A stretch of 64,000 nt of DNA from Acidobacteriota bacterium (GCA_046728115.1 JBKPDW010000072.1:1166-65165); one strand, 5' to 3'. Positions 12,714 to 31,833 are shown, counted from the first letter of the stretch. Numbers and translations: made by a program. The notes: generated by a model from the sequence alone, not told the origin.

Positions 12714-12748
12714 ATCAACCTCCCGATAAGTCGCGACGGTGAGAACGA

Positions 12749-14438: not shown

Positions 14439-15562
14439 GGCCGATTGTCCTGGCAAAAATACTCCGGCATGTCCTCGCCGGGCACCCACCGCAGCGTCCA
14501 GCCGGCGGACCACTGACGCGTGTAGGCGCCCGGATCCTCGATGGTCACATCGTAGCGCAGTGTACCGAAATCGGGCCGCGCGAGCCGCTCGACGAGGTGC
14601 AGCTGCTCGGTATGCGGCAGCCCGCCGTTGGAGAACCAGAAGCGCTCGTTGAAGCCCTTGGTATCGACGACCAGCGAATCGCCCTCCCAGCGCCCGACAG
14701 CGCGGCCAAAGTAGAGCGGGTTGTCGGCATCCCCCTCGACCTGGCCTTTCTGTTCGCGGCCGTCGGTGTAGATGAGACGCCAGTTTCGATTGCCGCCGCC
14801 CATCATCACGAACACGCGCTGGCGATCGCGCTGCTCGAGGAACTGGATGCCGTAGCGGTTCTGAAACTGCCGCGGCCCGCCCGGCGGCAGGCAGTGCACG
14901 AACATCGGATCGTCCTTGAGGAAGGCGCGCTGGCGGTAGACGTACAGATCGCGGGCCCAATCCTGGAACGGCGCGACGCGAGGCGCGTCGGCCACGCTGC
15001 GCAGCAGGCCGTCGGCATCTGCTTCCACGACGACACCGCGCTCGACCAGCGTTGTCGCGCTCGGACTCGCCCAGTAGCCCGTTTCGCCGGGCACCGCGCC
15101 CAGTCGCGGCTGTCCGTCCGGCCAGCGGGGCGTCGGCTCGTTCGTGGCGGCTGGTGCCGCGCTCGGGCGCGCGAAGAACACGCGCTGTCCGGTGCGCGCG
15201 ACCACCATCGACATCGACCAGGCTTGCTTGCTGCCGTCGCGCGCGGCGATTCCCTCCACCGTGACGACGTCGCCGACGCTCAGGGTATTCCGCGTCCAGC
15301 CCTGCCGCCGCAGATCAACCGGACTGTCGAGCTCGATTGCCCAGTTGACAACGCGGCCAGGCGACTCCGCGACGTTGACGAACACGTGTGCATGGGGATT
15401 CGCCCAGTCGATGGCGGTGACCGATCCGCGCAGCGTCACCTGTTTCGCGCTGTCGAACTTCGCCGACACCGCGTGGTGCGCGGTGAGCGGCGCCAGCCCG
15501 AGCAGTAGCGCGCCGCATCCGGCAACGAACCGTCCAGGCCACCACAGGAAATCGCCGGTCAT
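14435..15562 (-). CDS. Secreted fusion protein: DUF6152-like N-domain plus the domain found alone in 13150..14031
   Basis: Trimmed to Met47 (MTGDFLWWPGRFVAGCGALLLGLAPLTA|HHAVSAKFD...). The N-half parallels 14028..14438 and the C-half parallels 13150..14031. Confidence 0.7.
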   Translation of the reverse strand: MTGDFLWWPGRFVAGCGALLLGLAPLTAHHAVSAKFDSAKQVTLRGSVTAIDWANPHAHVFVNVAESPGRVVNWAIELDSPVDLRRQGWTRNTLSVGDVVTVEGIAARDGSKQAWSMSMVVARTGQRVFFARPSAAPAATNEPTPRWPDGQPRLGAVPGETGYWASPSATTLVERGVVVEADADGLLRSVADAPRVAPFQDWARDLYVYRQRAFLKDDPMFVHCLPPGGPRQFQNRYGIQFLEQRDRQRVFVMMGGGNRNWRLIYTDGREQKGQVEGDADNPLYFGRAVGRWEGDSLVVDTKGFNERFWFSNGGLPHTEQLHLVERLARPDFGTLRYDVTIEDPGAYTRQWSAGWTLRWVPGEDMPEYFCQDNRP

Positions 15563-15623
15563 ATGTGGTGCGTACACACGCCTTGGCGGAGGGTCAATTC
15601 TGGACCCTTTCGCTCGAGGAAGT

Positions 15624-15632
15624 GTATACAAT
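15624..15632 (+). promoter_or_regulatory. GTATACAAT, candidate -10-like element 7 nt upstream of the PQQ dehydrogenase-2 ATG
   Basis: Read directly. The same 9-mer occurs at 62018-62026 in the fae divergent promoter region. No Shine-Dalgarno at normal spacing before 15640. Confidence 0.25.
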
Positions 15633-15639
15633 TCGCGCA

Positions 15640-17386: not shown

Positions 17387-17881
17387 CTACTTCGGAAACT
17401 CGCGGCAGGCGTCGACGTCCGAGCCCCAGTACTCGATGCACTTGGCGCGATCCATCGGTCCTTTGCCGACGACTTTTTGTAAGAGGAAGTCGGCGACCAG
17501 ATCGATTTCCCGCTGCTGGAACGTCGCGGGCGGATCGGGCATCGGCGATTTCAGATCGGCCTGCTTCATGCCATAGCAGCGGCCGTCGCTGTAGGCGAAC
17601 TTGTCGAAGGCCGGCATGCCGGTTCCCGGCCGTCCACATTTGATCGTCTGAATCAACCTGGCGCGATCGAGCCTCGTTTCACGCAGGTTCGAGCCGTCCG
17701 GCATCTGGCTGTCCATCTTGCGGCCGTCAGCCGCCCACCCGTGACAGGCCTGGCAGTCGCCCTTCTGCAGGTACAGCCGCATCCCCTCGGCGACATCGGC
17801 CGCGTCAGGCGCCTGGGCGTGGCTGGCCGCGACCACGCACGCCGCCAGCATCAGCACCGCTGCGCCAAGCGTCCTCTTCAT
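17387..17881 (-). CDS. Secreted mono-haem c-type cytochrome (CQACH)
   Basis: ATG at 17881 (MKRTLGAAVLMLAACVVAASHAQA), with a GAGGAG Shine-Dalgarno 6 nt upstream on the coding strand. The stop lies 4 nt from the convergent PQQ dehydrogenase-2 stop. Confidence 0.8.
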   Translation of the reverse strand: MKRTLGAAVLMLAACVVAASHAQAPDAADVAEGMRLYLQKGDCQACHGWAADGRKMDSQMPDGSNLRETRLDRARLIQTIKCGRPGTGMPAFDKFAYSDGRCYGMKQADLKSPMPDPPATFQQREIDLVADFLLQKVVGKGPMDRAKCIEYWGSDVDACREFPK

Positions 17882-17899
17882 GTCCACTCCTCGTTGACC

Positions 17900-17922
17900 T
17901 CTGAAATCTGAACTCTGAAATG
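17900..17922. repeat. Heptamer tandem repeat TCTGAAA-TCTGAAC-TCTGAAA-TG
   Basis: Read directly in the 41-nt spacer between two minus-strand genes. Differs at 1 of 23 positions from 63937-63959. Confidence 0.7.
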
Positions 17923-18789
17923 TCAGCGCGGCACGCCGAGCAGTCCTTCGGCTTTCAGGATCAGATTCATCTGCGCGACCGCCTGCTGGAGGCTCTCATC
18001 GCTGATGCGCCTGGTCAAGCCCTCGAGGTCGACCGCAAGCCTCGTGCCCGCTGAAGGGTCTGTCGACGAGCGTGTTTGCCGCGCGGCCGCGATGGCCTGA
18101 TCGATCAATTCCAGAACGGTCGAAAGCGACGACAAGACCTGAGCGGCCTTCAAGGCCATGTCACCCGTCGCGCCGTCGGCGGTCATCGCCAGACCGAGAT
18201 GCTGCACGGCGCCCGCTGTCGCCTTCTTGACCCCGTAGCCGGCGCCCGGCCCTTTCGGTTCGACGCCGGGATCGAGCGCGTGCAGGACGTGTCCCGCATG
18301 AAGGTGGACGTCATCCAGCCTCGAGGCCTTGGCCGCGAGCCTGGCGTGCTCGAGGGCCACTCGCGCTTCGTCGATGGCGACCGGGAGGAATCCGCGTGAG
18401 CCAGGCGTATCGCGCCAGGTCGTCATCACATGGAGGATGTGAAGATGCGCAGGAATCGCCTCGATTCGCGCGACGAGAATGGCGTCCCCGCTCAGTTCGC
18501 CGGTGATTCGTACGGGCCGCCCCGCGTACAACGGCAGACCCATCGCGTCTTGATTCGCGATCGGCACCACACGGCCGTCACGATCGACGAGCACGTACTT
18601 CTCGAGCGCCTTGATGCAGGCGAGCAGACATTGCCGGTCGGTGTCGCCGGCGGCTCTCGATTGATGCGAGGCGCCGCACAGGTTGTCAGAGAGTCTGCCG
18701 GTGAAGGATTGCTGCGCCTCGAGATGCGACCGCGCGCCGCCGCCGAGGAACGCCAGGACCGCAAAGAGCGCAAAGACGTGCTTGAACAC
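17923..18789 (-). CDS. Secreted hypothetical protein with an N-terminal Cys cluster and two His clusters (HLHILH, HLHAGHVLH)
   Basis: Signal-like MFKHVFALFAVLAFLGGGA. CGASH...CLLAC near the N-terminus. No family recognised. Confidence 0.6.
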   Translation of the reverse strand: MFKHVFALFAVLAFLGGGARSHLEAQQSFTGRLSDNLCGASHQSRAAGDTDRQCLLACIKALEKYVLVDRDGRVVPIANQDAMGLPLYAGRPVRITGELSGDAILVARIEAIPAHLHILHVMTTWRDTPGSRGFLPVAIDEARVALEHARLAAKASRLDDVHLHAGHVLHALDPGVEPKGPGAGYGVKKATAGAVQHLGLAMTADGATGDMALKAAQVLSSLSTVLELIDQAIAAARQTRSSTDPSAGTRLAVDLEGLTRRISDESLQQAVAQMNLILKAEGLLGVPR

Positions 18790-18791
18790 CG

Positions 18792-20312
18792 TTACTCGGA
18801 GGCACCCAGCCGCTTGAGCAGCGCCACGGTGCCTGGGTGCGCGATTTGGACAGGAGGCTCGAATCCCAGCAAGTCAGCGCCGACAGGTGTCGCCGTCCGC
18901 CCCCGTCCGACCGTCGACCCGAACATGGCGGCTGCCAGCGGCGTAATCCCTCGCCGGTTTCTGACGTTGACGTCGGCGCCGCGCTCGACGAGGAATTGCA
19001 CGACGGTGTCGTACCCCAGCGAGGCGGCGACGTGCAGCGCGGTGTCGCCGGCCGGGTTCGCGGCCTTCACGTCGCCACCCAGTCGCATGGCCGCTGCGAC
19101 GCCCTCGCCCACGCGGATTTCCGGCTCGACCTTGCCGAAGTCAATCGTTTCGATGCCGCGCCGGCTCGCCGTGCGGCTCGATCCCATGCCTGCCGCGAGC
19201 ATGAGCGCATCTGCGCCGTTCGGCATCGTGAGGCTTCCATCGGCGCCCCCGGCCACGAGCGCGGTCATGATCTCGGGCTCGAGAAACCGGGCGGCCAGCA
19301 GGTACGGCGTCGAGCCGACGAGCGTCGCCGGCAGATTCCAATCCGTGGTGTCGCGCCGCATCGGCGTGCCCTTCGTCGTCCGCAGATTCGGATTCGCGCC
19401 GCGAGCGAGGAGCGTCTTCACCAGCGTCGCATCGCTCCTCAGGACCGCGGCGTGGAGCGCCGCGTAGCCGCCGCCGGACGCATTCGGATCCGCCCCGTGC
19501 TCGAGGAGCAGCGCCGCGACTGCTCCATTGCCGCTATGAGCGGCGAGTACGAGCGCGCTCACGCCATCCGGCTGCACGTCGTTCGGATCGGCACCGGCTT
19601 TCAACAGAAGCTTCGCGGAGTCGATGTCGCCCACACGCGCCGTGAACAGCAGCGGCGTGGTACCGCCGCGAAGCACCGTATAGTTCAGCTCCTCGCGTCC
19701 GGCACGCTGCGTCTGCTCGCCGACGACGGTCTGGGCGTAGATCCGGGAGCGGGCGCGAATATTGGCGTGAGCGTCGATGAGCGCCTGGACGACATCGGCG
19801 TGCCGCTCGGAGGCAGCCCACATGAGCGCGGTCTGATCGTGCTCATGCTCCTTTGCGTTCACGTCGGCGCCGTGCGCGATCAGCGCCTGGACGGCCTTCG
19901 CGCCGCCGGCGCGGGCGCACGTCATGAGCACCGTTTCACCGTTCAACAGCGCCGCCCTGGCGTTGGCGCCTCCCGCCAGCAGGCGCTCCACCATAGGCGC
20001 GCTGCGGTTGGTACACGCCAAATGGAGCGGCGTCGCGCCCAGATCGTTGGCGGCGTTCGCGCGCGCCCCGGCGCGAATGAGGAGATCGGCCATGGCGAGG
20101 TCGTCGCGGTGCACGGCCCAGTGCAGCGCCGTTGCGCCGTCGCCTTGCGTCGCGTTGACGTCGAGTCCTGCGGGGCGCTCTTTCAGCAGCGCGTTCACGG
20201 ATTCGAGATCCCGATTCTTGACCGCCTGAATGAGGCGCAGATCGGCTGCCGCTCCGGCGCCGCCCAGCGCCAGAAGTACACCCGCGACGCTACAGAGAAA
20301 GGATCCGCGCAT
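18792..20312 (-). CDS. Secreted ankyrin-repeat protein (copy 1)
   Basis: ATG at 20312 (MRGSFLCSVAGVLLALGGAGAAA) is preferred over the TTG at 20336. Many G-(A/T)-T(A/P)LHxA...GADxN ankyrin units. Paralogue of 26571..27929. Confidence 0.85.
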   Translation of the reverse strand: MRGSFLCSVAGVLLALGGAGAAADLRLIQAVKNRDLESVNALLKERPAGLDVNATQGDGATALHWAVHRDDLAMADLLIRAGARANAANDLGATPLHLACTNRSAPMVERLLAGGANARAALLNGETVLMTCARAGGAKAVQALIAHGADVNAKEHEHDQTALMWAASERHADVVQALIDAHANIRARSRIYAQTVVGEQTQRAGREELNYTVLRGGTTPLLFTARVGDIDSAKLLLKAGADPNDVQPDGVSALVLAAHSGNGAVAALLLEHGADPNASGGGYAALHAAVLRSDATLVKTLLARGANPNLRTTKGTPMRRDTTDWNLPATLVGSTPYLLAARFLEPEIMTALVAGGADGSLTMPNGADALMLAAGMGSSRTASRRGIETIDFGKVEPEIRVGEGVAAAMRLGGDVKAANPAGDTALHVAASLGYDTVVQFLVERGADVNVRNRRGITPLAAAMFGSTVGRGRTATPVGADLLGFEPPVQIAHPGTVALLKRLGASE

Positions 20313-21633
20313 CGATGCGTCCAGTGCTGTCCCCAATCGAATCGCGGTGGATGCCGAACTGTTCCAGCAGCGTGAGGTGCAGATTCGCCAGCGGCATGTT
20401 CGTCAAGCGGACATGCCGTCCCCCCTTCAGCGTGCCGGCGCCTCCGCCCGCAAGGATCATCGGGATGTCGATCGGCGCATGGCTGTTGCTGTCGGCGATC
20501 CCCGCGCCGTACATCATCGTCACATGGTCGAGCAGCGTGCCGTCGCCGTCGGGCGTCGCCTGCAGCTTGCCGAGCAGCTTCGCGAACATCCGCATGTGAT
20601 AGGCGTTGATCTTGGCGACCTTCGCCACCTTCTCAGGCTCCTGCTGATGGTGCGAGATGGGATGGTGCGCATCGGGCACGCCAATCTGCGGATACGTCAT
20701 GCCGCTGTGCTCGTGCCCCAGCATCAGCGTGATGACGCGCGTGAGATCGCATTGAAACGCGAGCACCTCCAGGTCGAGCATCAGGTTCACATGATCTTCC
20801 CAGGTCGGCGGGATGCCCGGCGGGTGATCGACGAGCGGTAGCTCGCGATCGCTCTGCGCTTCGGCGATCTGGATGCGCTGCTCCACGTCGCGGACCGCGT
20901 CGAGATATTCGGTGAGCTTCGTCCGATCGTCTGGCGGGAGCGCGCCCTGCAGGTGCGCGACCTCGTCGCGCACCGAATCGAGCACGCTCCGCTGCCGGCG
21001 CAGCCGCGCGAGCCGCGCCATCGGATCGGTGCTCGTCGTGTCGCCGAACAGGCGCTCGAAAATCGCGCGCGGGTTGTTCTGCGTCGGCAGCGGCGTGTTC
21101 GGGCTCTTCCAGCTGATCGTGTTGGTGTAGGGACACGCGAAACCGGTGTCGCAGGCGCCGGAGGTTTCGCCCGACTCTATCGCCAGCTCGAGCGACGGGA
21201 CCTGCGTGACCTTGCCGGTTTCCTGCGCGAGGATCTGATCCATCGAGATGCCGGCGTCGAGCCACGTCTCGCTCGTGGGCGGCGAGACGTCGGTGAGAAA
21301 CCGCGTGCTTGCCTTGGCGTGCGCGCCGCCGGGCCGTCCCGCCGTCGGAATGCACTCCAGTCCGCTCAATACGAGCACGTGCTCGCGAAACGGCGCCAGC
21401 GCGCGCAGCGTCGGCGTCAGCTCGTAGCCCGTACCCTCGGTCAACGGCAGGTAGTCCTTCATGATCATGCCGTTGGGCACATACATGACGCCAAACCGGT
21501 TGATCGGTCTGGCAGCTGTCTTCTGAAATGCCGAGAGCGCTGGCACCATGCTGTCGAGCAGCGGCAGCGCCACCATCGACCCCAGGCCGCGCAACACGGT
21601 CCGCCGCGGTATCGCACGTTTCGAAATGATCAT
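20290..21633 (-). CDS. DUF1552 (HxxSHH) family protein with Tat-type leader (copy 1)
   Basis: Trimmed to Met326 of track ORF 20290..22608 (MIISKRAIPRRTVLRGLGSMVALPLL). HHPISHH motif present. ATGA overlap with the upstream stop at 21630-21633. Confidence 0.85.
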   Translation of the reverse strand: MIISKRAIPRRTVLRGLGSMVALPLLDSMVPALSAFQKTAARPINRFGVMYVPNGMIMKDYLPLTEGTGYELTPTLRALAPFREHVLVLSGLECIPTAGRPGGAHAKASTRFLTDVSPPTSETWLDAGISMDQILAQETGKVTQVPSLELAIESGETSGACDTGFACPYTNTISWKSPNTPLPTQNNPRAIFERLFGDTTSTDPMARLARLRRQRSVLDSVRDEVAHLQGALPPDDRTKLTEYLDAVRDVEQRIQIAEAQSDRELPLVDHPPGIPPTWEDHVNLMLDLEVLAFQCDLTRVITLMLGHEHSGMTYPQIGVPDAHHPISHHQQEPEKVAKVAKINAYHMRMFAKLLGKLQATPDGDGTLLDHVTMMYGAGIADSNSHAPIDIPMILAGGGAGTLKGGRHVRLTNMPLANLHLTLLEQFGIHRDSIGDSTGRIDARILSL

Positions 21634-24071
21634 GGGTCCCCCGACATCGCCATGCTGAACGGCGTGCTCTTCGCGATGCCTGTGATGATCGACGACCACG
21701 TGTAGTCGGCGGCCGCCGCGTCGCCCGCGATCCGACGGACGGCCGGCATGTCGCGATAGTCGAGACCTCGCCCCAGTGCGTACGCCAGAAGCTTTCCTGT
21801 GAGCGTCCGGGCGAAGTCCTCTTTGTGGCCGGCGACGAAAGCGCGCAGACCGGCGATGCCCTCGAACCTGGTGCCGTCCGGAAACGACGCCGACGGATCG
21901 ATCGAAACGCCGTCGCTCACCGTGCGCCACTTTCCCAACGCGTCGAAGTTCTCGAGCGAGAAACCCAGCGGATCCATACGCTGGTGACACGACGCGCACG
22001 CGGGATTTTTCCGATGCATCTCCATGCGGTCGCGCAGGGATTGCGGCTGACCGTCGGCGCCCGCCTCTTTGAGCGCAGGGATGTCGGCCGGCGGCGGCGG
22101 TGGAGGCGCGCCCAGCACGTTCGCCAGCAGCCATCGGCCGCGCATCGTCACCGACGTGCGATTCGGGTACGACGTGACCGTCAAGATGCTCGCCTGGCCG
22201 AGCAGTCCTCCGCGCGTCGCGTCGGGAAACGTCACGCGCCGGAAATGGCTGCCGTACACGTTGCCGATTCCGTAGTGAGCGGCGAGCCGTTCGTTGAGGA
22301 ACGAATAGTCGGCCGTCAACAGCTCCACGACGCCGCGGTTGTCGCGAAGCTGGCTGCTGATGAACATCTTCGTCTCCTGCGCCATCGCGTCGCGCAGGTT
22401 TTCGTCGAACTCGGGATACAGCTCGGTGTCGGGGACGATGCCCGGAAGTCTGTTCAGCTCGAGCCATCGGCTCGCGAAGTTGTCGACGAGCGCGTTCGCG
22501 CGCGGATCGCGAAGCATGCGGCGCACCTGCTGCTCGAGCGCCGCCGGATCGGTCAGCTTTCCGCGAATCGCCGCCTCTCGCAGCTCGTCGTCCGGGACGC
22601 TGCTCCATAAGAAGAACGACAAACGCGAGGCGATGTCCAGATCGCTGAGGCGATACGTGGATCCTGGCGCCACCCCCGCGGGTTCGCGTTCGATGCGGAA
22701 GAGAAAGCTCGGCGCCGCGAGGATGCGTTCGAGGCCGCGTTGAATGCCAGCGTCGAAGCTGCCTTCCGATCGGCCCGACTTGTAGAAATCCAGCAGAGGC
22801 TGCAGATCACGATCGGTGACAGGACGCCGATAGGCACGTGCCGCCAGCGTCGACAGAATCTTCGTCGCGCACGGCAGCTCCGATGCGGCGTCCCGTGGAC
22901 GGCAGAGAAACACGTGGCGCCGGCTCGCTGAGTCGCCGGCCGCCGGCGCGCCGTACGGACCACCGATCATCACGATCTCGACGGCGGGATTGCCATGGTA
23001 GTACTCGTTGGTCGTCCGTCCGAAGCCTGTCTGGGGCGGCTGCCGGATGCCTTCAGGCTCCCAGAAGCGCCTGACGAACGACACGCCCACTTCGTGCAGC
23101 CCGGCCTTCACGGGGACGCGCACTTCAAGATGCGCGTCGGCCGTGTGCATGTACTCTTCGAACTCGGGATCGCCCTGCGTATTTCCGGCGAAATTCTCGG
23201 GAGCCGTCATCCCCTTCGCTTCGCCGCCGACGGTGAACCGCTGCAACCGCACGCCGTCGAGACGGATGTCGATCTGGTGCGGCTCGCCCACGCCGATGAT
23301 GTAGTCGTACTCCTGTCGCCGCAGCAGGACCTTGATCGTGTACTCGCCATCGAGCGGAAAAGAATGACGAATCAGCGCGCCGCCCTGCGATCCGAACGGC
23401 AGGTCGTCGCCGAGCCGATCGTCCTGCACCAGCGCCTTCGAGATTTTGAACGCCTCGATCACGGGTTGGAGCGCGGGATCGCCGACAGCGAGGCGGCTCA
23501 CCGTGCGCGCGGCGGCCAGATAGTTCTCGAGCAGCCCCGGCGACACCGAGAGGACAGTCGCCACGTTATCGAAGCCTTCCTGATCGGCTTCGTCCGACGG
23601 CAGCAGCGCACGTCCATCGATCTCGAGTCCCAGCAGATCCCGAATCGCGTGGGCGTACTCGCTGCGGTTCAGGCGGTGAACGGGCACGCGGCCGGGATGG
23701 GGCTTCGCCGCAGCCGCTGCGTCGAGCTCGCTTTCCAAGGCCGCGATGGCCGCCTTGTAGGAGGCGGCATCGGGACGCGGTCGGCCCGTAGGCGGCATCT
23801 CGCCCGTGCGCAGCCTGGTCACAACTTTTTCCCACAGCTGCGCGTTGTCGCCGACGTGGGTCGCATCCAGCGTGTCCAGTTGCAGCCCAGCCGTCTTGAG
23901 TCGGCTGTTATGGCAACCGACACAGTACTGATCCAGGATCTCGCGCGTCGTGGGCGCAGGAGCCGCAGGACTTCCTGTCAGGACGCTAGTCCACGCTGGT
24001 GCCAGCGCGATCAGCGCCAGAAGACCGCGCGAACGGGCCGGTCGGTGTGGCATGTCGAGTTGCTCCGGCAA
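21630..24071 (-). CDS. DUF1592/DUF1588-type multidomain protein with two CxxCH motifs (CVGCH near the N-terminus, CASCH near the C-terminus) (copy 1)
   Basis: YCVGCHNSRLKTAGLQLD..., ...KNPACASCHQRMDPLGFSLENFD..., the architecture usually paired with DUF1552. Start could instead be Met7 (24053). Confidence 0.85.
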   Translation of the reverse strand: MPEQLDMPHRPARSRGLLALIALAPAWTSVLTGSPAAPAPTTREILDQYCVGCHNSRLKTAGLQLDTLDATHVGDNAQLWEKVVTRLRTGEMPPTGRPRPDAASYKAAIAALESELDAAAAAKPHPGRVPVHRLNRSEYAHAIRDLLGLEIDGRALLPSDEADQEGFDNVATVLSVSPGLLENYLAAARTVSRLAVGDPALQPVIEAFKISKALVQDDRLGDDLPFGSQGGALIRHSFPLDGEYTIKVLLRRQEYDYIIGVGEPHQIDIRLDGVRLQRFTVGGEAKGMTAPENFAGNTQGDPEFEEYMHTADAHLEVRVPVKAGLHEVGVSFVRRFWEPEGIRQPPQTGFGRTTNEYYHGNPAVEIVMIGGPYGAPAAGDSASRRHVFLCRPRDAASELPCATKILSTLAARAYRRPVTDRDLQPLLDFYKSGRSEGSFDAGIQRGLERILAAPSFLFRIEREPAGVAPGSTYRLSDLDIASRLSFFLWSSVPDDELREAAIRGKLTDPAALEQQVRRMLRDPRANALVDNFASRWLELNRLPGIVPDTELYPEFDENLRDAMAQETKMFISSQLRDNRGVVELLTADYSFLNERLAAHYGIGNVYGSHFRRVTFPDATRGGLLGQASILTVTSYPNRTSVTMRGRWLLANVLGAPPPPPPADIPALKEAGADGQPQSLRDRMEMHRKNPACASCHQRMDPLGFSLENFDALGKWRTVSDGVSIDPSASFPDGTRFEGIAGLRAFVAGHKEDFARTLTGKLLAYALGRGLDYRDMPAVRRIAGDAAAADYTWSSIITGIAKSTPFSMAMSGDP

Positions 24072-24086
24072 GTATGCGCCCGAGTC

Positions 24087-25730
24087 TCAGAACTCCGCGA
24101 GCGCAAATGCGGTCAGCGTGGTCCCCACTGGCATGAGCACGTATTGGCGGCCGTCGACCATATACGTGATCGCACCTGCGTACAGCGACGAACCCGTCTG
24201 GAAGTGCCAGAGGTTTTTGCCGGTCTTCGCATCGAACGCCATCAGATTGCCCGACCCGCCCGCGAACACGAGCCCCGACGCGGTCGACAGCACGCCAGCC
24301 CACGACTGCGTCGTGTAGGGAAACTCCCAGCGGCGATCGCCGGTCGCGACGTCGATCGCGCGCAGGGCACTGTAATTGGTTTCGATCAGCCGCTGCACCG
24401 CGCCGCCCCGATACGCGTCGCCGGCGTTGTAGTCGTCCTTCCAGGAAAAGAAGACGCCGCACGACTCGCGCGCCGTGACGAAAAACAGACCCAGCGACGG
24501 ATCGAACGACGGTGGCATCCAGTTCGTGCCGCCGGACTGATCCGGACAGACTTTCGTCCCTTCCTCACTCGGGACGCTGTTCGGCAGCAGCATCGGCCGG
24601 CCGTCGGGTCGAATCTCCTTGGCCCACGTCGTTTCGATGAAGGGCCTGGCTTTGATCAGTTTCCCGGTCGCGCGATCGAGCACGTAGAAAAAGCCGTTGC
24701 GGTTCGCGAACAGCACCACTTTTCGGAGTTGGCCGTCGAGCGTCAGATCGGCCAGGACCGGCATCTGCGTCGAGTCGTAGTCCCAGATGTCGTGCGGCGT
24801 GAACTGGTAGTGCCAGCGTATCTTGCCGGTGTCGGCCTCGAGCGCCACGACCGACGCGGTGTACAAGTTGTCGCCTTCGCGCTCCGCGCCGTTGTAATCG
24901 GGTCCCGCGTTCCCGGTGCCCCAGTACACGAGATCGAGTTCCGGATCGTACGCGCCAGGCACCCAGATCGATCCGCCGCCGTGCTCCCAGGCCTTTGCGT
25001 CGGTCCCACGCCAGGTGCCGTGGCCGGGATCGCCCGGGCCGGCCGTCGTGTAGAACCGCCAGACCTGCTTGCCGGTCTGCGCGTCGTACGCGTCGATGAA
25101 GCCGCGCACACCGTACTCGGCACCGGCCACGCCGACCAGCACTTTGTCTTTCACGACGAGCGGGGCGGTCGTGCCGCTGTACCCGTGCCGGTAGTTCTCC
25201 ATCGCCGTGTCCCACTCGAGCGCACCCGTCTTCCGACTGATTGCCACGACGTGGGCGTCGAGCGTCGTCTTGAAGAGCCGATCGCCAAGCACGCCGAAGC
25301 CACGGTTGACGAGTCCGCAGCAGGCAATGAGTCCACTCGGAAGATCGCGTCTATACCGCCAGATCTGCCGGCCGGTGCGGGCATCGATCGCCCAGCCGGT
25401 GTCGAGCGGCCCGGTCACATAGATCACGCCGTCGAGCACGAGCGGAGCCGCCTCGAACTTGCCGAGCGTGTCGGTCTGAAACTGCCATTGCGCGACAAGG
25501 CGATTCACGTTCGCAGGCGTGATCTGCGTCAACGGACTATGTCGATGGTTGGCGTAGTCGCCTGCGTATGTGAGCCAACGCGCCGGATTCTTCAGGCCCT
25601 CGCGCAGGTCCTGCGCCGTGACTTGAGAAACAGGCGGCTGCTGCGCCGCGGCCGGCCACGAGACCGCCGCGGCCAGAAGTGTCACTCGAATCGTGCGAAC
25701 CATCACGGCGCGCATGCTCGCCTCCGTCAT
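24087..25730 (-). CDS. PQQ-dependent dehydrogenase, methanol/ethanol family (paralogue 3), D-Y-D motif
   Basis: Trimmed to Met218 of track ORF 24087..26381 (MTEASMRAVMVRTIRVTLLAAAVSWPAAA), giving an ATGA overlap with the cytochrome stop at 25727-25730. Blocks: RWLTYAGDYANHRHS, IACCGLVNRG, GGSIWVPGAYDPELDLVYWGTGNAGP, HDIWDYDST. Confidence 0.9.
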   Translation of the reverse strand: MTEASMRAVMVRTIRVTLLAAAVSWPAAAQQPPVSQVTAQDLREGLKNPARWLTYAGDYANHRHSPLTQITPANVNRLVAQWQFQTDTLGKFEAAPLVLDGVIYVTGPLDTGWAIDARTGRQIWRYRRDLPSGLIACCGLVNRGFGVLGDRLFKTTLDAHVVAISRKTGALEWDTAMENYRHGYSGTTAPLVVKDKVLVGVAGAEYGVRGFIDAYDAQTGKQVWRFYTTAGPGDPGHGTWRGTDAKAWEHGGGSIWVPGAYDPELDLVYWGTGNAGPDYNGAEREGDNLYTASVVALEADTGKIRWHYQFTPHDIWDYDSTQMPVLADLTLDGQLRKVVLFANRNGFFYVLDRATGKLIKARPFIETTWAKEIRPDGRPMLLPNSVPSEEGTKVCPDQSGGTNWMPPSFDPSLGLFFVTARESCGVFFSWKDDYNAGDAYRGGAVQRLIETNYSALRAIDVATGDRRWEFPYTTQSWAGVLSTASGLVFAGGSGNLMAFDAKTGKNLWHFQTGSSLYAGAITYMVDGRQYVLMPVGTTLTAFALAEF

Positions 25731-26560
25731 CTCGTCGCCGCGTTCGCGGCGCGTAGCGACGTCAAGTACGACAGCAGATCGTCGAGGTCGCGATCGTTCA
25801 GTCGATCGGGCCCGTAGACGGGCATCAACGACTGCTTGTCGATCGTGAGGGTAGTCAGGTTGGCCTTGAGGAATCCCCGCAGCTGCTCGCGCGTATCCAT
25901 GATCTGGATCGAGAACTCGTCTTCGTTCTTTTTGACGCCGCGAATCCGCTCCCCCTCGCGCGTCACGATCGTCACCGGCTCGTATCCCGGCCTGATGACG
26001 TCGCTCGATCCTCGCAGCTTGCTCACGAGGCCTGCGCGCGGCCGGCCCGATCCAATCCGCGACAGATCGGGGCCGAGCTGCCCGCCACGGCCATTCGCTC
26101 TGTGACAACTGCTGCAGTTGGCGCGGAAGATCTGCTCGCCGTTGCCGGCATCGCCCGTCGATGCCGATGCGGGCGTGGCGTTCAAGGTTCGGACGTAGGC
26201 GAGGATTTGCCAGATGTCCTTGTCGAGCACACGCTGCGGATCGGCGGCGGTCATCTCCGTGCCCGGTACGCCTCGCCGCACGATGTCGAACATCCGGTCG
26301 TCGGTCCCACCCGCGGCCCAGAACCCGGTGAGGTCTGGGCCGAGATATCCGCGCGCATCGGGACCGTGACAGCCCGCGCACCGTGTACGGAACATTGCGC
26401 CGCCGTTGCTGATCGCCTGAGGATTTCCCTCGAGTGGATTCTTCGTGGGACGCGCATCGGCGCGCGCCGCGGTCCGATCCTGAGCCATCGCGAGGCGCTC
26501 CCCGCCGAGGCCGAGCGCCATCGTCATCAACGCTGCGATCATCGACGCTGTCCGCCCCAC
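25727..26560 (-). CDS. Secreted di-haem c-type cytochrome (CAGCH and CSSCH) with C-terminal extension; paralogue of 857..1636
   Basis: Two CxxCH motifs. The C-terminal ...SLMPVYGPDRLNDRDLDDLLSYLTSLR parallels ...SPMPSYRNKLTPDEINDVVAYLVSLK in 857..1636. Confidence 0.85.
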   Translation of the reverse strand: MGRTASMIAALMTMALGLGGERLAMAQDRTAARADARPTKNPLEGNPQAISNGGAMFRTRCAGCHGPDARGYLGPDLTGFWAAGGTDDRMFDIVRRGVPGTEMTAADPQRVLDKDIWQILAYVRTLNATPASASTGDAGNGEQIFRANCSSCHRANGRGGQLGPDLSRIGSGRPRAGLVSKLRGSSDVIRPGYEPVTIVTREGERIRGVKKNEDEFSIQIMDTREQLRGFLKANLTTLTIDKQSLMPVYGPDRLNDRDLDDLLSYLTSLRAANAATR

Positions 26561-26570
26561 GGCCGCCTCC

Positions 26571-27929
26571 TTATCGCGTGCCTGGTCTGGCGCCGTTCTC
26601 CAGGAGAAACCTGACGACAGTGTCGTACTTCAAGGCTTTCGCCGCATCCAGAGCGGTGCGACCGTCGACGTTGGCCGCATTGGCATCGACGCCAAGCTCA
26701 ATGGCCAGTTTGACCGCGTCGAGTGTCAGCTCCTCGCGCGCGCTGCGTTCGGGCAGGATCCACGCCTCGCCGCCGCCCATTCCGACCGCCGCCATGAGGG
26801 CGGTCGTCACGTCCGTCCGGTGTTGAAACCCACTGCCGCCTCTCGCCTCCACGACGTGATCGCCGTGGTGGACGAACAGCGGATCCGCGCCGTGTGCCAC
26901 GAGGGTGCGCATGACGTTCGGCTGCGCGAAGCGCGCAGCCAGCCAGAACGGCGTCGCGCCGACGAGTTCGGGGCTGAAATGAAAGTCTTTCGACGAGCGG
27001 CGCGTGGGCGTCCAGTTCCGGACCGGGGCGTTCGCGTCCGCGCCGTGCGTGAGGAGAACGGTGACCATTCTCTCGTCGCGGCGCATGATCGCGGCATGCA
27101 GCGCCGTAAACCCCGCCTCCGCCGCGTTCGGGTCGGCGCGGTGCTCGAGCAGGAACTCCACCAGCTCCGGATATCCGGCGTGCGCGGCCAGAGTCACGGC
27201 GCCGACCCCCCACGCGTCTCGGTCGTTGACATTGGCGCCCGCAGCCACCAGAAGCTTAGCCGACGCGAGGTCGCCGACACGCGCGGCGAACATCAATGCC
27301 GTCTCGCCCCCGAATGGGACCGACCGGTTGTAGTCGAGATACCCGTGGGGCGGCACCGCCATCACCTGGCTCCAGGTGTTCGATCGGGCGTGCACGTCGG
27401 CACCGTGCGCGAGCATCACCGCGACGACCTCGGGATGCTTCTGCGCGACCGCCCACATGAGCGCAGTTTGCCCGCGCGCGGCATGTGCGTCGAGGTTGGC
27501 GCCTCTGGCGATCAGGTGTTCGACGACCGCTGGATTGCCGGAGCGCGACGCGACCATCAGGGGCGTCTCCCCACGCAGGAGCGCCGCATTCGGATTCGCG
27601 CCAGCGTCGAGCAATCGCCGGACCATCGCCTCGCTGCCGTTCAGGCAGGCACTCCAGAGCGGCGTGACGCCTAAATCGGTCGTCGCGTTCACACTGGCGC
27701 CGGCGCGAATGAGCAGGTCCGCGCTCTCGACGTCGTTTCGATAGCTTGCCCAATGCAGCGCGGTGGTGCCATCGGCTTCGGCCGCGTTGACGTCCGCCTT
27801 TTTCAGCAGCAGCGCGCGCAGAGTCGCGCTGTCGGCGTTCTTCGCCGCGTCAACGAGGGCTGGGCGTTCCGCGGCAATGCCCGCAGCGGCACCAAGCCAA
27901 ACGGCCAATAGCGCGAACAGTCGTCGCAT
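26571..27929 (-). CDS. Secreted ankyrin-repeat protein (copy 2)
   Basis: MRRLFALLAVWLGAAAGIAA signal and multiple ankyrin units. Shares the unusual internal block ...LVGATPFWLAARFAQPNVMRTLVAHGAD with copy 1. Confidence 0.85.
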   Translation of the reverse strand: MRRLFALLAVWLGAAAGIAAERPALVDAAKNADSATLRALLLKKADVNAAEADGTTALHWASYRNDVESADLLIRAGASVNATTDLGVTPLWSACLNGSEAMVRRLLDAGANPNAALLRGETPLMVASRSGNPAVVEHLIARGANLDAHAARGQTALMWAVAQKHPEVVAVMLAHGADVHARSNTWSQVMAVPPHGYLDYNRSVPFGGETALMFAARVGDLASAKLLVAAGANVNDRDAWGVGAVTLAAHAGYPELVEFLLEHRADPNAAEAGFTALHAAIMRRDERMVTVLLTHGADANAPVRNWTPTRRSSKDFHFSPELVGATPFWLAARFAQPNVMRTLVAHGADPLFVHHGDHVVEARGGSGFQHRTDVTTALMAAVGMGGGEAWILPERSAREELTLDAVKLAIELGVDANAANVDGRTALDAAKALKYDTVVRFLLENGARPGTR

Positions 27930-27932
27930 GCG

Positions 27933-29273
27933 TTACAGCCCTGACAGCGTGTCGAGCGGCAGTTCGCCGGTGCTGCCGCCGATCTTCTCCACCGGCGCGC
28001 CCATTTTGTCCATCAGCGTGACCAGCAGGTTGGCCATCGTCGGCTCGTCGGAGTACTTGAGATGCCGGCCGCCCATGTGCGTCCCCGCGCCGCCGCCCAT
28101 GATTAGGATCGGCAGGTTGTCCCCGGCATGGCGCGTGCTGTTGGAAATGCCGGAGCCATAGAGGATCGTCGTGTGATCCAGGAGCGACCCCTCGCCATCG
28201 GGCGTCGCGCGCAGCTTGGCCAGGTACTGGGAGAAGAGCTGCGTGTGATATCGGTTGATCTTCGACATGCGCGCGATCAACTCGGGAATATCGTTGTGGT
28301 GCGAGAGCGGATGGTGCGCCTCCGGCACCCCGATTTGCGGGTACGGGCGCGCGCTCTGTTCCTTGCCGATCATGAAGGTGACGATGCGCGTGAGATCCGA
28401 TTGAAACGCCAGGAGCTGCAGGTCGAGCATCAGCGCGAGATGATCCTCGAAGACCGGCGGTGCGCCCTGCGGCTGCTCCAGCGTAGGCAGCTCCAGGTCG
28501 GCCTGTTCCTCGGCTCGCTGAATGCGACGCTCGACGTCGCGAATGGCCTCTGTGTACTCATCGATCTTGATGTGATCCTGCGGCCCAAGATCCTTCCTGA
28601 GGGTCGCGAGCTTCTCCGACACCGAGTCGAGAATGCTCTTGTGCTGCCGCAACCGAGCTTCGCGCGCGGCGCGGTCCGTGCTGCCGCTGTCGCCAAACAG
28701 TCGCTCGAAGACCGCCCGGGGATTCCATTCCATCGGCAACGGCTGCGTCGGACTGCGCCACGACAGGGTGTGCGTGTAGACGCAGCTCAGGTTGCCGGTG
28801 CACGCGCCTGCGTTGGCCGGAACATCCATCGAGAGCTCGAGCGATGCGACCTGCGTCTCGCCGCCAAAGTGCCGCGCGAGCAGCTGATCGATCGACACGT
28901 CCGCGACGATCTCGATTTCGTTCCGTCCTCCGCGCGAGGTGCCCGTCAGAAACGATCCAGACGCGCCCGCGTGGATGTAATTCCAGTTCGCCTTGATGCC
29001 CGACAGCACGAGCATCTGATTTCGGTACGGCGCAAGGGGTTCCAGAATCGGGGAGAGATCGAAATCCGTGCCCTCGCCTTTCGGCGACCAGTACTCCATG
29101 GCCATGCCATTCGGCACGTAAAAGGTCTGGAAGCGGTGGGCCGGCTTCGCGGCTGCCCGGCCGCGCCGCGAGAAGGCGGGAAGCATCGCCTCGAGAAAGG
29201 GCAGCGCTATCGTTGCGCCCAGGCCCCGAAGGACCGTCCGCCGCGGCAGCGATTTCGTCGTGAGGAAAGGCAT
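27933..29273 (-). CDS. DUF1552 (HxxSHH) family protein with Tat-type leader (copy 2)
   Basis: MPFLTTKSLPRRTVLRGLGATIALPFL and HHPLSHH. Collinear with 20290..21633 over its full length. Confidence 0.85.
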   Translation of the reverse strand: MPFLTTKSLPRRTVLRGLGATIALPFLEAMLPAFSRRGRAAAKPAHRFQTFYVPNGMAMEYWSPKGEGTDFDLSPILEPLAPYRNQMLVLSGIKANWNYIHAGASGSFLTGTSRGGRNEIEIVADVSIDQLLARHFGGETQVASLELSMDVPANAGACTGNLSCVYTHTLSWRSPTQPLPMEWNPRAVFERLFGDSGSTDRAAREARLRQHKSILDSVSEKLATLRKDLGPQDHIKIDEYTEAIRDVERRIQRAEEQADLELPTLEQPQGAPPVFEDHLALMLDLQLLAFQSDLTRIVTFMIGKEQSARPYPQIGVPEAHHPLSHHNDIPELIARMSKINRYHTQLFSQYLAKLRATPDGEGSLLDHTTILYGSGISNSTRHAGDNLPILIMGGGAGTHMGGRHLKYSDEPTMANLLVTLMDKMGAPVEKIGGSTGELPLDTLSGL

Positions 29274-29274
29274 A

Positions 29275-31833
29275 TCAATTCACTTTCCCGAGAAACGTCG
29301 GGCTTTGGACAATTCCGAGAATGATCGACGACCAGCGGTAGTCGTGCGCAGCCGCACCTCGGACGATCGTGCGAACGGAGGGTCGGTCGTAGTACTGCAG
29401 CCTGCGACCGAGCGCATATGCCAACAGCTTTTCGGTCACCGTGCGGGGAAACTGCTCGGGCTGCTCGAGCAGAAAAGCCCGCAGGCCCGAAAGTCCTTCG
29501 ACTCTCGCACCGCTGACGGTGGTGCCGCTCGCGTCGACCTTCTGGCCAGACTCGTCAACGGTCCGCCAGCCACCAATCACGTCGAAGTTTTCCAGTGCGA
29601 ACCCGAGCGGATCGATGGCCGAATGACAACTGTTGCACGACGGGTTCTGCCGATGTTCGGCCAGCCGCTCTCGTATCGATGTCGGCCGTGCGCCCGGTTT
29701 GGTGTTCAGGTTCATGTCCACGCCGGGCGGGGGTGGGGGGACCGGCAGACCGAACATGTTGTTCAGCAGCCATTTCCCACGCAAGACAGGTGACGTGCGA
29801 TCAGGGTACGACGTGGTCGCCAGCAGCGCGCCTTCCGCGAGCAGGCCGCCGCGCTGGTCGTGGTTTGGCAGCGTTACACGGCGAAAGCGGCTGCCGTACA
29901 CGCCGGGAATTCCGTAATGCCGCGCCAGCCTTTCGTTGACGAACGTGTAATCCGCATTCAGGAGATCGACAACGCTCCGATCCTCGCGGATCGTGCTGCC
30001 GACAAAGAGCTCGGTTTCCCGCCGAAACGCCTGCATCAGGCTCAGGTCGTAGTTGGGATAACGCTCGGGATCCACGACGACTTCATCGATCCGGCGAAGA
30101 TTCAACCACTGGGCGGCGAAATCGTCGACCAGCGCTTCCGTGGCGCGCGGGTCTGCCAGCATCCGCCGCACTTCCCGTTCGAGAACGGGAGGGCTGGTCA
30201 GTTGGCCGCGCTCGGCCAACGTCAGCAAGCGATCATCCGGGATGCTGCTCCAGAGGAAAAACGACAAGCGAGAAGCGACTTCGATGTCGCTGAGTTGATT
30301 CGAATCCTGATGGACGCGCAGGAGGAAGTCCGGGTCGACGAGCATGCGTTCGAGCGCGAATTGGATGCCGCCGTCAAAGTGACCGGCCTCGCGTCGACCC
30401 GCATCGAAGAAGTCTCGCAGCACCTGCACGTCGCGGTTTGTCACGGGCCGGCGGTACGCGAGACGGGCCAGTCGCGAAAGAATCTCCGAGGCGCAGCGTT
30501 GCTCGTCTGCGGCACGCGTGGGATGGCAACTGAAGATCGCCCGGCGACTCGGAGTAGCTTGCCCCCTTCCCGATTGCTTGTAAGGCCCTCCGATCTGAAC
30601 AGAGCCCACGCTTGCGTAATCCATGTACACCTGGTCGTCCGTGATGACCCGGCCTCTTTGCAAGGGTTGCGGGAGACCCTCCGGCTCCCACAGCTCCCTC
30701 ACGAACGACACGCCGACGATGTGCAATCCTCGATCGACTGGAACGCGGACTTCGAGACCAGCGTCTCCGCCGATCTGCATGTACTTTTCCCACGAGTCAT
30801 CGCCGGCAAAACCCGGCTCGCCGTCGCCGGCATAGCTGGCCGCGGCGGGCCTGCCTTGCGCGCCGCCTCCGACCGTAAACCGCTTCACCAGCTTGCCATC
30901 GAGGCGCACATCGAGTTGCTGCGGCCAGCCCATCCCCTTGATGTAGTCCTGATACTGCCGCTGGAGACGAACTTTGATCGCGTACTCGCCGTCTACGGGA
31001 AACTCGTGGCGAATCGCAAGACCGCCGCGAGATCCGAGCGGCAGATCTTCGCTCTGGCGGTCATCCTGCACGACGTGCAGCGGAATCTCGAAGGTCTCGA
31101 CTCGCGGGCTCGTGGGCGGAAGACCTGTGGCGAGTCGCGTGACCTGTCGGGCGACCGACAGGTATCGCTCGAGATGGGCCGTCGAAATCGAAAGGGAGTC
31201 AGCGAAATTGTCGAAGCTGCCGTCCGCGGTCTCATCGCCCGGCAGGAGCGGCCTGACGTCAAAGCTCAGCGGGTCGAGCCCGAACAGGTCGCGCACCGCG
31301 TTGCTGTACTCGGTGCGATTGAGACGGTGAACCGCGCTGATCGTTCCCGGATTCGGCTTGGCCGCCCATGCGCGATCGATTTCCGTCTCCAACCACTCCG
31401 CTACGGCACGGTACGTCGCCTGGTCCGGCCGCGGTTTCCCCGGCGGCGGCATCGAGCCGGCTCGAAGCTTTGCGATCACGCGCTCCCACGACTCCGCATT
31501 GGCACTTGGCCTGGTCACGTCCAGTCCATCGAGCGCAAGCCCGGCGGTCCGCAGTCTCTGGTTATGGCAGGTGACGCAGTACGTGTCGAGGACGGCCCGC
31601 GGCGAAGCGGAGGCTGCCGGCTCGGGCGCCGATTGCGTCTGTCGAGCCGCCTCCGCGCCTGCGCGCTCCGTCGACTGCTCGGCAAAGATGTCCAGTGCGC
31701 GTAGGCGAGCGGAGGTGTGGATGCCTGACAGCGAGACGACGCAACTGGTGACGACGAGCGCGCAGATCGATCCCCGTGCCACGCGAGGGAGCAGCCCGAC
31801 CGTGCGCCGCCTGTCGTGCCCGGAACACTGCAT
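29275..31833 (-). CDS. DUF1592/DUF1588-type multidomain protein with two CxxCH motifs (CVTCH, CNSCH) (copy 2)
   Basis: YCVTCHNQRLRTAGLALD... and ...QNPSCNSCHSAIDPLGFALENFD.... Its stop lies 1 nt from the DUF1552 start. Confidence 0.85.
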   Translation of the reverse strand: MQCSGHDRRRTVGLLPRVARGSICALVVTSCVVSLSGIHTSARLRALDIFAEQSTERAGAEAARQTQSAPEPAASASPRAVLDTYCVTCHNQRLRTAGLALDGLDVTRPSANAESWERVIAKLRAGSMPPPGKPRPDQATYRAVAEWLETEIDRAWAAKPNPGTISAVHRLNRTEYSNAVRDLFGLDPLSFDVRPLLPGDETADGSFDNFADSLSISTAHLERYLSVARQVTRLATGLPPTSPRVETFEIPLHVVQDDRQSEDLPLGSRGGLAIRHEFPVDGEYAIKVRLQRQYQDYIKGMGWPQQLDVRLDGKLVKRFTVGGGAQGRPAAASYAGDGEPGFAGDDSWEKYMQIGGDAGLEVRVPVDRGLHIVGVSFVRELWEPEGLPQPLQRGRVITDDQVYMDYASVGSVQIGGPYKQSGRGQATPSRRAIFSCHPTRAADEQRCASEILSRLARLAYRRPVTNRDVQVLRDFFDAGRREAGHFDGGIQFALERMLVDPDFLLRVHQDSNQLSDIEVASRLSFFLWSSIPDDRLLTLAERGQLTSPPVLEREVRRMLADPRATEALVDDFAAQWLNLRRIDEVVVDPERYPNYDLSLMQAFRRETELFVGSTIREDRSVVDLLNADYTFVNERLARHYGIPGVYGSRFRRVTLPNHDQRGGLLAEGALLATTSYPDRTSPVLRGKWLLNNMFGLPVPPPPPGVDMNLNTKPGARPTSIRERLAEHRQNPSCNSCHSAIDPLGFALENFDVIGGWRTVDESGQKVDASGTTVSGARVEGLSGLRAFLLEQPEQFPRTVTEKLLAYALGRRLQYYDRPSVRTIVRGAAAHDYRWSSIILGIVQSPTFLGKVN

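Follow-up and report, generated by a model that had tools for sequence, protein, structure and literature searches.

A conserved DUF1592–DUF1552–ankyrin triad, present twice beside a PQQ dehydrogenase cassette in a C1-oxidation island of an acidobacterium

A tightly packed row of ten genes in an Acidobacteriota bacterium (GCA_046728115.1, JBKPDW010000072.1:1166-65165) brings together two sets of DUF1592-family, DUF1552 and ankyrin-repeat proteins, a pyrroloquinoline quinone (PQQ) dehydrogenase and several c-type cytochromes, and raises the question of whether these genes encode one periplasmic redox system, as an original prediction made from this DNA had proposed, or several systems that share a neighbourhood. 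The array spans positions 17387-31833, minus strand, of the 64,000-nucleotide (nt) stretch analysed here, hereafter the window, and its genes are named G1 to G10 in the order of transcription. Comparison with other genomes indicates that the DUF1592, DUF1552 and ankyrin genes are a strongly conserved module, the triad, which is found in two diverged types in the array. The array as a whole appears, with moderate confidence, to be a co-directional mosaic of independently conserved cassettes and not one obligate ten-gene system. The ten genes, with product lengths in amino acids (aa) and the basis of each assignment, are the following:

G1, 29275-31833, minus strand: type-1 DUF1592-family protein, 852 aa (Pfam, CxxCH positions)
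G2, 27933-29273, minus strand: type-1 DUF1552 protein, 446 aa, twin-arginine leader, HHPLSHH (Pfam, 316.7 bits)
G3, 26571-27929, minus strand: type-1 secreted ankyrin-repeat protein, 452 aa (Pfam)
G4, 25727-26560, minus strand: di-haem cytochrome c, 277 aa (Pfam, NCBIfam TIGR02603)
G5, 24087-25730, minus strand: PQQ-dependent alcohol dehydrogenase, 547 aa (TIGR03075)
G6, 21630-24071, minus strand: type-2 DUF1592-family protein, 813 aa from a TTG start, paralogue of G1 (54%) (Pfam)
G7, 20290-21633, minus strand: type-2 DUF1552 protein, 447 aa, twin-arginine leader, HHPISHH, paralogue of G2 (50%) (Pfam, 317.0 bits)
G8, 18792-20312, minus strand: type-2 secreted ankyrin-repeat protein, 506 aa, paralogue of G3 (45%), 23-nt overlap with G7 (Pfam)
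G9, 17923-18789, minus strand: secreted 288-aa protein with 12 His and 3 Cys (no curated family)
G10, 17387-17887, minus strand: mono-haem cytochrome c, about 164-166 aa (Pfam)

All ten open reading frames occupy the coordinates first predicted for them, each in the reading frame whose third positions are richest in GC, and the nine junctions, read one by one from the sequence, agree with the earlier description and range from -23 to +41 nt. These are a 1-nt gap at 29274 (G1/G2), 3 nt at 27930-27932 (G2/G3), 10 nt at 26561-26570 (G3/G4), where AAGGAGG precedes G4 as a ribosome-binding site, an ATGA overlap at 25727-25730 (G4/G5), 15 nt at 24072-24086 given the TTG start of G6 (G5/G6), another ATGA overlap at 21630-21633 (G6/G7), the 23-nt overlap at 20290-20312 (G7/G8), 2 nt at 18790-18791 (G8/G9) and 41 nt at 17882-17922 given an ATG at 17881 (G9/G10). 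The predicted domain order also holds, with Pfam matches above the gathering scores for all genes except G9, as do the predicted haem-binding motifs (two CxxCH each in G1, G6 and G4, one in G10) and the twin-arginine translocation (Tat) leader and HxxSHH motif ascribed to DUF1552, since both G2 and G7 contain RRTVLRG and HHP[LI]SHH. As judged by eye, all ten products are exported, G2 and G7 via the twin-arginine pathway and the other eight with Sec-type hydrophobic N-termini. None of the nine junctions contains a promoter-like site, and terminator-like counts are no higher than in shuffled sequence; the absence of such signals fits co-transcription without proving it, and the array is probably co-transcribed here.

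The two triads had been described as collinear paralogues with about half of their positions identical, and full-length comparison gives 54% for G1/G6, 50% for G2/G7 and 45% for G3/G8. The three triad genes were duplicated together and have diverged to similar degrees. This duplication is old, as had been claimed, because orthologues of each type found elsewhere are 72-90% identical, as opposed to 45-54% between the types, and the same figures rule out an assembly artefact as its source. Direct evidence for a recent insertion of the triads by a mobile element was not found, the only transposase remnant (44532-45077) lying 12 kb away.

The conservation of the triad was assessed from the DUF1552 side in a census with one genome per species, which comprised 80 loci from Vicinamibacterales, Bryobacterales and other Acidobacteriota with a DUF1552 protein 75-87% identical to G2. 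In every locus with room, a DUF1592 gene lies directly upstream of DUF1552 and a G3-type ankyrin gene (58-77% identical) directly downstream, which bears out the proposal of a dedicated secreted ankyrin partner. Median gaps within these type-1 triads are 17 nt (DUF1592/DUF1552) and 4 nt (DUF1552/ankyrin). The best 120 homologues of G3 are all at least 72% identical, and contigs found through the ankyrin carry DUF1592–DUF1552 in front of it in three of three cases, in unrelated surroundings that include kinases, an ABC-type permease and a zinc alcohol dehydrogenase. Moreover, L022 and L034, two of the loci retrieved, hold an additional diverged triad (DUF1552 39-48%, ankyrin 32-39% identical) in which the ankyrin is still kept, and tblastn of plasmid records identified a full triad in Novosphingobium sp. 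KACC 22771, where a megaplasmid carries it (NZ_CP117882.1, 943320-948518). The closest relatives of the array proteins are encoded in Vicinamibacterales and other Acidobacteriota, and the same proteins are present on Joint Genome Institute (JGI) soil-metagenome contigs. On this comparative evidence, the triad is a strongly conserved module with at least three diverged subfamilies, widespread in soil Acidobacteria. The 75-87% identity of type-1 DUF1552 proteins between Vicinamibacterales and Bryobacterales, which belong to separate classes, suggests very strong constraint or lateral spread. On two long-read-style contigs, L090 (1927-7495) and L183 (4614-9997), the triad genes are in fragments, which probably reflects assembly frameshift errors rather than pseudogenes.

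Type-2 triads are as abundant and conserved as those of type 1. The best 120 orthologues of G7 are all at least 84% identical, those of G6 in L088 and L090 are 78-80% identical, and the 23-nt overlap of the DUF1552 and ankyrin genes is kept in the type-2 triads of L085-L090. Judging from gene order, the type-2 module usually carries a fourth gene, G9. A G9 homologue (66-68% identical) follows the type-2 triad on long contigs, the gene standing after the type-2 ankyrin in L088, L090, L148/L171, L183 and L184; both contexts reached via G9 homologues have the gene after a type-2 ankyrin, and one type-2 triad is devoid of it. The G9 family consists of 855 clusters, and G9 itself has no match in Pfam, NCBIfam or PDB apart from a sub-threshold one to DUF5818 in Pfam. 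Among the type-2 contexts examined in other genomes, no PQQ dehydrogenase or cytochrome c gene lies directly beside the module. There, the module adjoins genes for a carbon-monoxide-dehydrogenase-type molybdenum enzyme, for glycosidases, or for GSDH, AA12-like and Rieske proteins; in L184, GSDH and AA12-type quinoprotein genes adjoin the triad.

How closely the triads are tied to the PQQ dehydrogenase was evaluated from both sides. A metagenome scan with G5 provided 80 contigs at 66-94% identity, and 65 of the 66 that have room show G4 directly upstream of the G5 orthologue; therefore, cytochrome and dehydrogenase constitute a cassette of their own. Where 5 kb of room or more is available (23 contigs), G5 is followed downstream by a triad in 8 (7 of these 8 being type 1 on the same strand), and the remaining 15 contain none. 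Triads near G5 are confined to its closest orthologues, with none in nine contigs below 82% identity, and their spacing varies: they are adjacent to G5 in L105 and L106, and elsewhere an NHL propeller gene or an opposite-strand PQQ dehydrogenase lies between. From the triad side, PQQ dehydrogenases are absent within 10 kb of 62 of the 80 type-1 loci, and a G5-like one is present in only 6. Furthermore, in three close relatives the array is broken at cassette borders, in L102 and L117 exactly there. L102 has G4, G5 and G10 in order, with G10 90% identical and no triad between, and in L117, whose G5 is 94% identical, G5 runs directly into DUF6152, unnamed-family (X13150) and NHL genes that in the window sit 8.4 kb further on, beyond G6–G10 and a convergent PQQ dehydrogenase. 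L104 keeps ankyrin–G4–G5 as in the window, followed by an unrelated molybdenum-enzyme gene. Right after its G5 orthologue, this contig has a tandemly repeated GC-rich palindromic element at 3290-3420 (GTAGGGCGACCCTTTCAGGGTCGCC...), and past these repeats are genes for an isoquinoline-oxidoreductase-like [2Fe–2S] subunit and a Tat-signal subunit.

It is from this two-sided census and the broken relatives that the mosaic character of the array follows, and the proposed welding of ten genes into one module is not sustained. An ankyrin gene is third in every type-1 locus of the census with room, whereas adjacency to a PQQ dehydrogenase is found in a minority and in variable order. One obligate periplasmic electron-transfer system, comprising the PQQ dehydrogenase, its cytochromes and both triads, is thus quite unlikely. 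Junctions as tight as those of the array are nevertheless also expected of one true operon, which counts against a mosaic, and a single system would be consistent with the lack of terminator-like sites inside the array and with the export of all ten products. Moreover, PQQ pair and triad adjoin in at least three arrangements, namely G5–type-1 triad (L105/L106), ankyrin–G4 (window, L104) and G5–type-2 triad (window), and orthologous G4–G5 pairs are found upstream of type-1 triads in L008, L014 and L039. However, apart from the triads without a PQQ dehydrogenase, the G5 contigs without a triad and the relatives broken at cassette borders, the other surroundings of type-2 modules also argue against such a system. 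In the mosaic reading, this repeated and differently arranged adjacency leaves a looser functional link possible.

The PQQ cassette has recognizable relatives. G5 passes TIGR03075 (559.5 bits, cut-off 480.05) and contains vicinal cysteines at residues 137-138 and a D-Y-D signature (WDYDS, residues 317-319), with an extra Asp two residues past the catalytic Asp. According to the criterion given in PMC5103831, such a D-x-D motif selects lanthanides, and G5 is predicted to be a lanthanide-type PQQ alcohol dehydrogenase. Its best relatives in PDB are type II quinohaemoprotein alcohol dehydrogenases, PedE/PedH-type enzymes and XoxF, and it scores below TIGR04528 (Acido-empty-quinoprotein group A; 552.9 bits, cut-off 650). 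G4 combines a class I cytochrome c domain with a TIGR02603 haem-binding domain (93.2 bits, cut-off 68.15) and remains below the cut-offs for cytochrome cL (MoxG, TIGR03872; 55.3 bits as against 147.8) and PedF. Thus, G5 resembles XoxF and PedH in its TIGR03075 match, its vicinal cysteines, its D-Y-D motif and a cytochrome c of its own encoded upstream, and the window also encodes the tetrahydromethanopterin pathway of formaldehyde oxidation. In contrast, G4 differs from XoxG, MoxG and PedF in its two-domain architecture, and G5 differs from XoxF in that it ranks nearer to type II alcohol dehydrogenases in PDB and that no xoxJ was identified. A role of the triad in lanthanide or metal acquisition was also considered, in view of the lanthanide-type dehydrogenases and outer-membrane receptor genes nearby, and was rejected as the principal explanation, since PQQ dehydrogenases are absent from the vicinity of most triads.

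The function of the triad was approached through its DUF1552 subunit. With only G2, G7 and 23 type-2 orthologues, the alignment was too shallow for AlphaFold (predicted local distance difference test, pLDDT, 43.5), and the model obtained was excluded from the fold search. A model of G2 built with AlphaFold2 from 90 sequences 33-50% identical to G2 reached a pLDDT of 90.3 and a predicted template modelling score (pTM) of 0.92. In a Foldseek search against PDB, nearly all of the top 50 matches of this model belong to the alkaline-phosphatase superfamily, with probabilities of 0.94-1.00 for all but one, E-values from 6e-5, template modelling (TM) scores of 0.36-0.46 and about 10% identity. They comprise lipoteichoic acid synthase (LtaS), formylglycine sulfatases, phosphonate monoester hydrolase and YejM/PbgA, and a search of a viral structure library with the same model also led to this superfamily. 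DUF1552 is thus predicted to have an alkaline-phosphatase/sulfatase fold.

At the sequence level, this relationship leaves few traces. None of the Pfam models of the superfamily, including Sulfatase and Phosphodiest, matched any of 15 DUF1552 members at E-values up to 10, and relaxed scans of these 15 proteins revealed no second Pfam family. Single-sequence and profile searches of PDB found nothing relevant for DUF1552, and G1, G2 and G9 have no NCBIfam model. An hhalign comparison of the DUF1552 profile with AslA of E. coli was not significant (probability 2%). It pairs 'LLDHTTILYGSG' of DUF1552 with 'LDNTLIVFTSDNG' of AslA, which is a lead and not a test. By eye, LLD-x-T-x-I-L-Y-G-S of DUF1552 aligns with that same AslA segment, FLTG comes after the second strand, and H101-x3-S-x2-F-L-T-G sits where sulfatases have C-x-P-x-R-x2-L-L-T-G, again as a lead only. 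The CxPxR nucleophile motif is absent, the corresponding positions reading YVPNG, H101-AGAS-GS-FLTG and YGSG by eye, and neither an Asp-Asp pair, an Asp-His/Asn ligand set nor the canonical acidic metal ligands were found when the sequences were read. What is conserved instead, invariantly or nearly so, is R47, G56, H101, D129, Q130, D216, D233, H321, H325, H326, H382 and G393; among the histidines, H321 and H325 are invariant in the 90 sequences, whose H101, H326 and H382 are almost invariant. Residues 201-291 form an inserted long helical hairpin. The Pfam TAT_signal model recognizes the twin-arginine leader in 3 of the 15 members.

The structural neighbours allow a hydrolytic interpretation of the triad, in which DUF1552 would be a divergent phospho- or sulfo-ester hydrolase, DUF1592 a substrate-binding protein or haem-based sensor, and the ankyrin a scaffold, the adjacency to the dehydrogenase being coincidental or merely regional. 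The resemblance to sulfatases, LtaS and phosphonate monoester hydrolase speaks for it, and so does the third gene in Planctomyces, DUF1080, which we take to be a glycan-related family. In addition, sulfatase genes of Verrucomicrobia are often located near genes with PSCyt domains, and some PSCyt proteins contain carbohydrate-binding modules (PMC5615132). Nonetheless, a hydrolase of this kind is unlikely, given the missing CxPxR, Asp-Asp pair and Asp-His/Asn ligands and the failure of Sulfatase and Phosphodiest to match even at E = 10. A Tat leader is also unusual for simple hydrolases of the sulfatase fold, and an invariant CxxCH in the partner protein, together with cytochrome c and b genes in Sphingobium, points to electron transfer.

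The lack of canonical catalytic residues could also mean that DUF1552 is non-catalytic, like the periplasmic domain of YejM/PbgA, and that the triad has a structural, envelope or signalling role. YejM/PbgA periplasmic domains are indeed found among the structural matches, at ranks 27-50, and one triad has Ser/Thr kinases and a PP2C phosphatase as its neighbours. This is, however, distinctly improbable. The conserved His and Asp residues are invariant or nearly so throughout a family that exceeds 17,000 clusters at 50% identity, which suggests a metal or active site, and Tat export and a covalent haem partner would be costly for a purely structural role.

Hints of redox chemistry come from the partner protein and from gene neighbourhoods. 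G1 consists of an N-terminal cytochrome c domain (PSCyt1, CVTCH at residue 86), DUF1587, DUF1595, DUF1592, DUF1588 (CNSCH at residue 733) and DUF1585, and G6 has the same Pfam architecture. The matches to PSD3, PSD5, PSD4, PSCyt3 and PSD2 are all above gathering in both proteins, at 65.5, 54.5, 156.9, 115.4 and 82.3 bits in G1 and at 80.3, 68.6, 160.5, 122.7 and 71.1 bits in G6. The second CxxCH is invariant across eight diverse members of the family, and no meaningful PDB relative of the DUF1592 protein was found with single sequences or profiles. On plasmid pMSHV of Sphingobium herbicidovorans (L096, 6983-9519), a distant DUF1592–DUF1552 pair (26% identical) is followed by cytochrome c and cytochrome b genes, a cluster that hints at a link of the family to membrane electron transport. 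Moreover, among 48 type-1 loci in which the triad is complete and each flank extends over at least 1.5 kb, a beta-propeller gene is located within 400 nt in 15 and, when the fetched flanks of up to 10 kb on each side are considered, a PQQ-, NHL- or YNCE-type beta-propeller gene is present in 25 (raw counts). The invariant second CxxCH, the Sphingobium cytochromes and these nearby quinoprotein and beta-propeller genes are hints of a redox role.

Each triad would most likely form one periplasmic three-protein complex. Co-inheritance, co-duplication and tight spacing support the triad as a unit, whose products may associate physically. The DUF1552 subunit, with its sulfatase/alkaline-phosphatase fold, would be exported through Tat in the folded state and, therefore, presumably already loaded with metal. 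In its putative centre, the canonical nucleophile and acidic ligands are gone, and H101, H321, H325 and H382 plus D129 stand out as candidate residues. The DUF1592 partner would carry two covalently bound c-type haems, as predicted from its CxxCH motifs, and the Sec-exported ankyrin of about 450-500 residues may act as a dedicated scaffold subunit or as an assembly or stabilizing chaperone, as AnkB-type proteins do for periplasmic catalases. Electrons would then move between the haem pair and the centre in DUF1552. Since the PQQ cassette is repeatedly located beside the triad in a subclade of Vicinamibacterales, the triad may exchange electrons with G4–G5 via soluble cytochromes, without depending on the dehydrogenase. 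The complex, the metal centre, the redox role and this coupling are inferences, as opposed to the gene structure, the domains, the conservation and mosaicism of the cassettes and the predicted fold, which are direct results. What is left of the originally proposed periplasmic redox module is a conserved triad with hints of a redox role, the PQQ dehydrogenase belonging to a separate cassette.

The triad may be an unrecognized periplasmic enzyme, in which a sulfatase fold would have lost its hydrolytic site and acquired a histidine-ligated redox metal, electrically connected through a two-haem partner and kept in place by an ankyrin solenoid; this proposal is tentative. Several observations weigh against a redox complex of the triad proteins. 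The fold match is moderate, with no significant link at the sequence level, and the alkaline-phosphatase superfamily, whose known members comprise hydrolases, transferases and mutases, is not known to include redox enzymes. Acidobacteriota are believed to encode greatly enlarged beta-propeller, PQQ and outer-membrane receptor families, and the frequent occurrence of such genes near triads may be due to chance. In addition, the third gene varies in the wider DUF1552 family, being DUF1080 in Planctomyces sp. SH-PL62, whereas Chondrinema has only the DUF1592–DUF1552 pair, with no third gene, and the Sphingobium pair is followed by its cytochrome genes and no ankyrin there. On one lake contig, a short ankyrin gene is found upstream of the pair instead of downstream. 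The family is large, 17,351 representatives matching G2 at E-values of at most 0.001 in a library clustered at 50% identity, and the contigs of its distant representatives are mostly too short to show neighbours.

In Planctomycetes and Verrucomicrobia, DUF1592-family cytochromes are already on record as partners of DUF1552, with no role given to the pair (PMC5615132), and the view that it lacks an assigned function stands, as the literature reports nothing on its role. He et al. 2017 (PMC5615132) cite the original description of a 'planctomycete-specific cytochrome c' in Rhodopirellula baltica. The pairs in those phyla share with the window the domain architecture, the adjacent DUF1552 with its Tat leader, the gene order and the tight spacing; the triads of the window add a secreted ankyrin, and G9 in type 2, and are found in Acidobacteriota and a Novosphingobium. 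Literature searches turned up no ankyrin third partner, G9 or DUF1552 fold in full texts. DUF1587, DUF1588, DUF1592 and DUF1595 are also among the additions proposed, from a domain comparison with no test, for an anaerobically respiring Pseudomonas putida (PMC7789669). DUF1552 has in common with the alkaline-phosphatase superfamily (formylglycine sulfatases, LtaS/EptA-type transferases, YejM/PbgA) its predicted alpha/beta core fold. It differs from these proteins in the missing Cys/Ser-x-Pro-x-Arg motif and acidic ligands, the hairpin at 201-291, the predominance of His among conserved residues, Tat export and a di-haem partner that is always present, and its sequence similarity to them is non-significant.

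The closest functional analogy for the ankyrin is offered by periplasmic ankyrins that are reported to bind catalases and promote their activity or haem loading, such as AnkB with KatB in Pseudomonas aeruginosa, AnkB with CatB in Xanthomonas and Cj1386 with KatA in Campylobacter (PMC10294975). The triad resembles the AnkB and Cj1386 systems in having an ankyrin-repeat gene in an operon with a haem protein, which is an analogy of function only. Unlike in those systems, the partners are a c-type cytochrome and a sulfatase-fold protein, and the ankyrins have about 450-500 aa, catalase-associated ankyrins being much smaller. Neither the window nor the sampled triad loci contain a catalase gene.

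The array lies inside a C1 (tetrahydromethanopterin) oxidation island, which is near-complete at 32048-61912 and was overlooked in the original prediction. Upstream of G1 are genes of tetrahydromethanopterin-biosynthesis type (GHMP kinase, DUF447, DUF6513 plus pterin-binding domain, amino-acid kinase, HisA/F-like), and the island further includes ATP-grasp genes, mch, fhcD/C/A-type formyltransferase/hydrolase genes, DUF1464, mtdB and fae. The transposase remnant mentioned above, an IS66-family fragment of 181 aa that covers the C-terminal part of the model only, is also inside it. The window encodes three PQQ dehydrogenases, G5 and two more, all with a D-[YF]-D lanthanide-type signature. One is part of a second cytochrome–PQQ dehydrogenase cassette at 857-3309 on the plus strand, in which the dehydrogenase (1258-3309) contains Cys-Cys and D-Y-D and the cytochrome has the same class I plus TIGR02603 architecture as G4. 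The other (15565-17382) converges on G10 and has D-F-D without vicinal cysteines; its start overlaps the longest open reading frame of a DUF6152 gene (14435-15700), and one of the two overlapping starts is probably overcalled. CarboxypepD_reg/TonB-type outer-membrane proteins, NHL propellers, DUF6152 and an unnamed family of about 290 aa (window 13150-14031) recur as neighbours of triads or G5 orthologues (window 8361-15700; L003, L117, L008, L112), a set that could be either functional or due to family expansion alone. The gene content of the island, together with three lanthanide-type PQQ dehydrogenases, suggests oxidation of methanol or other C1 compounds by this acidobacterium.

For the annotation of this organism, the PQQ dehydrogenase and its cytochromes are thus to be regarded as a separate cassette in the C1-oxidation island, and not as part of the triad system. 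For the family, DUF1552 and its cytochrome partner, which are repeatedly noted in Planctomycetes and Verrucomicrobia and number more than 17,000 clusters at 50% identity, gain a structural frame, consisting of a predicted sulfatase-like fold, Tat export and an atypical, chiefly histidine set of conserved residues. They also gain a conserved third subunit, an ankyrin, a kind of protein that seldom serves as a dedicated partner in periplasmic systems of bacteria, in a module whose DUF1552 proteins remain 75-87% identical over two classes of Acidobacteriota. Since a cultured carrier of the triad exists in Novosphingobium sp. KACC 22771, genetics on this module should be feasible.

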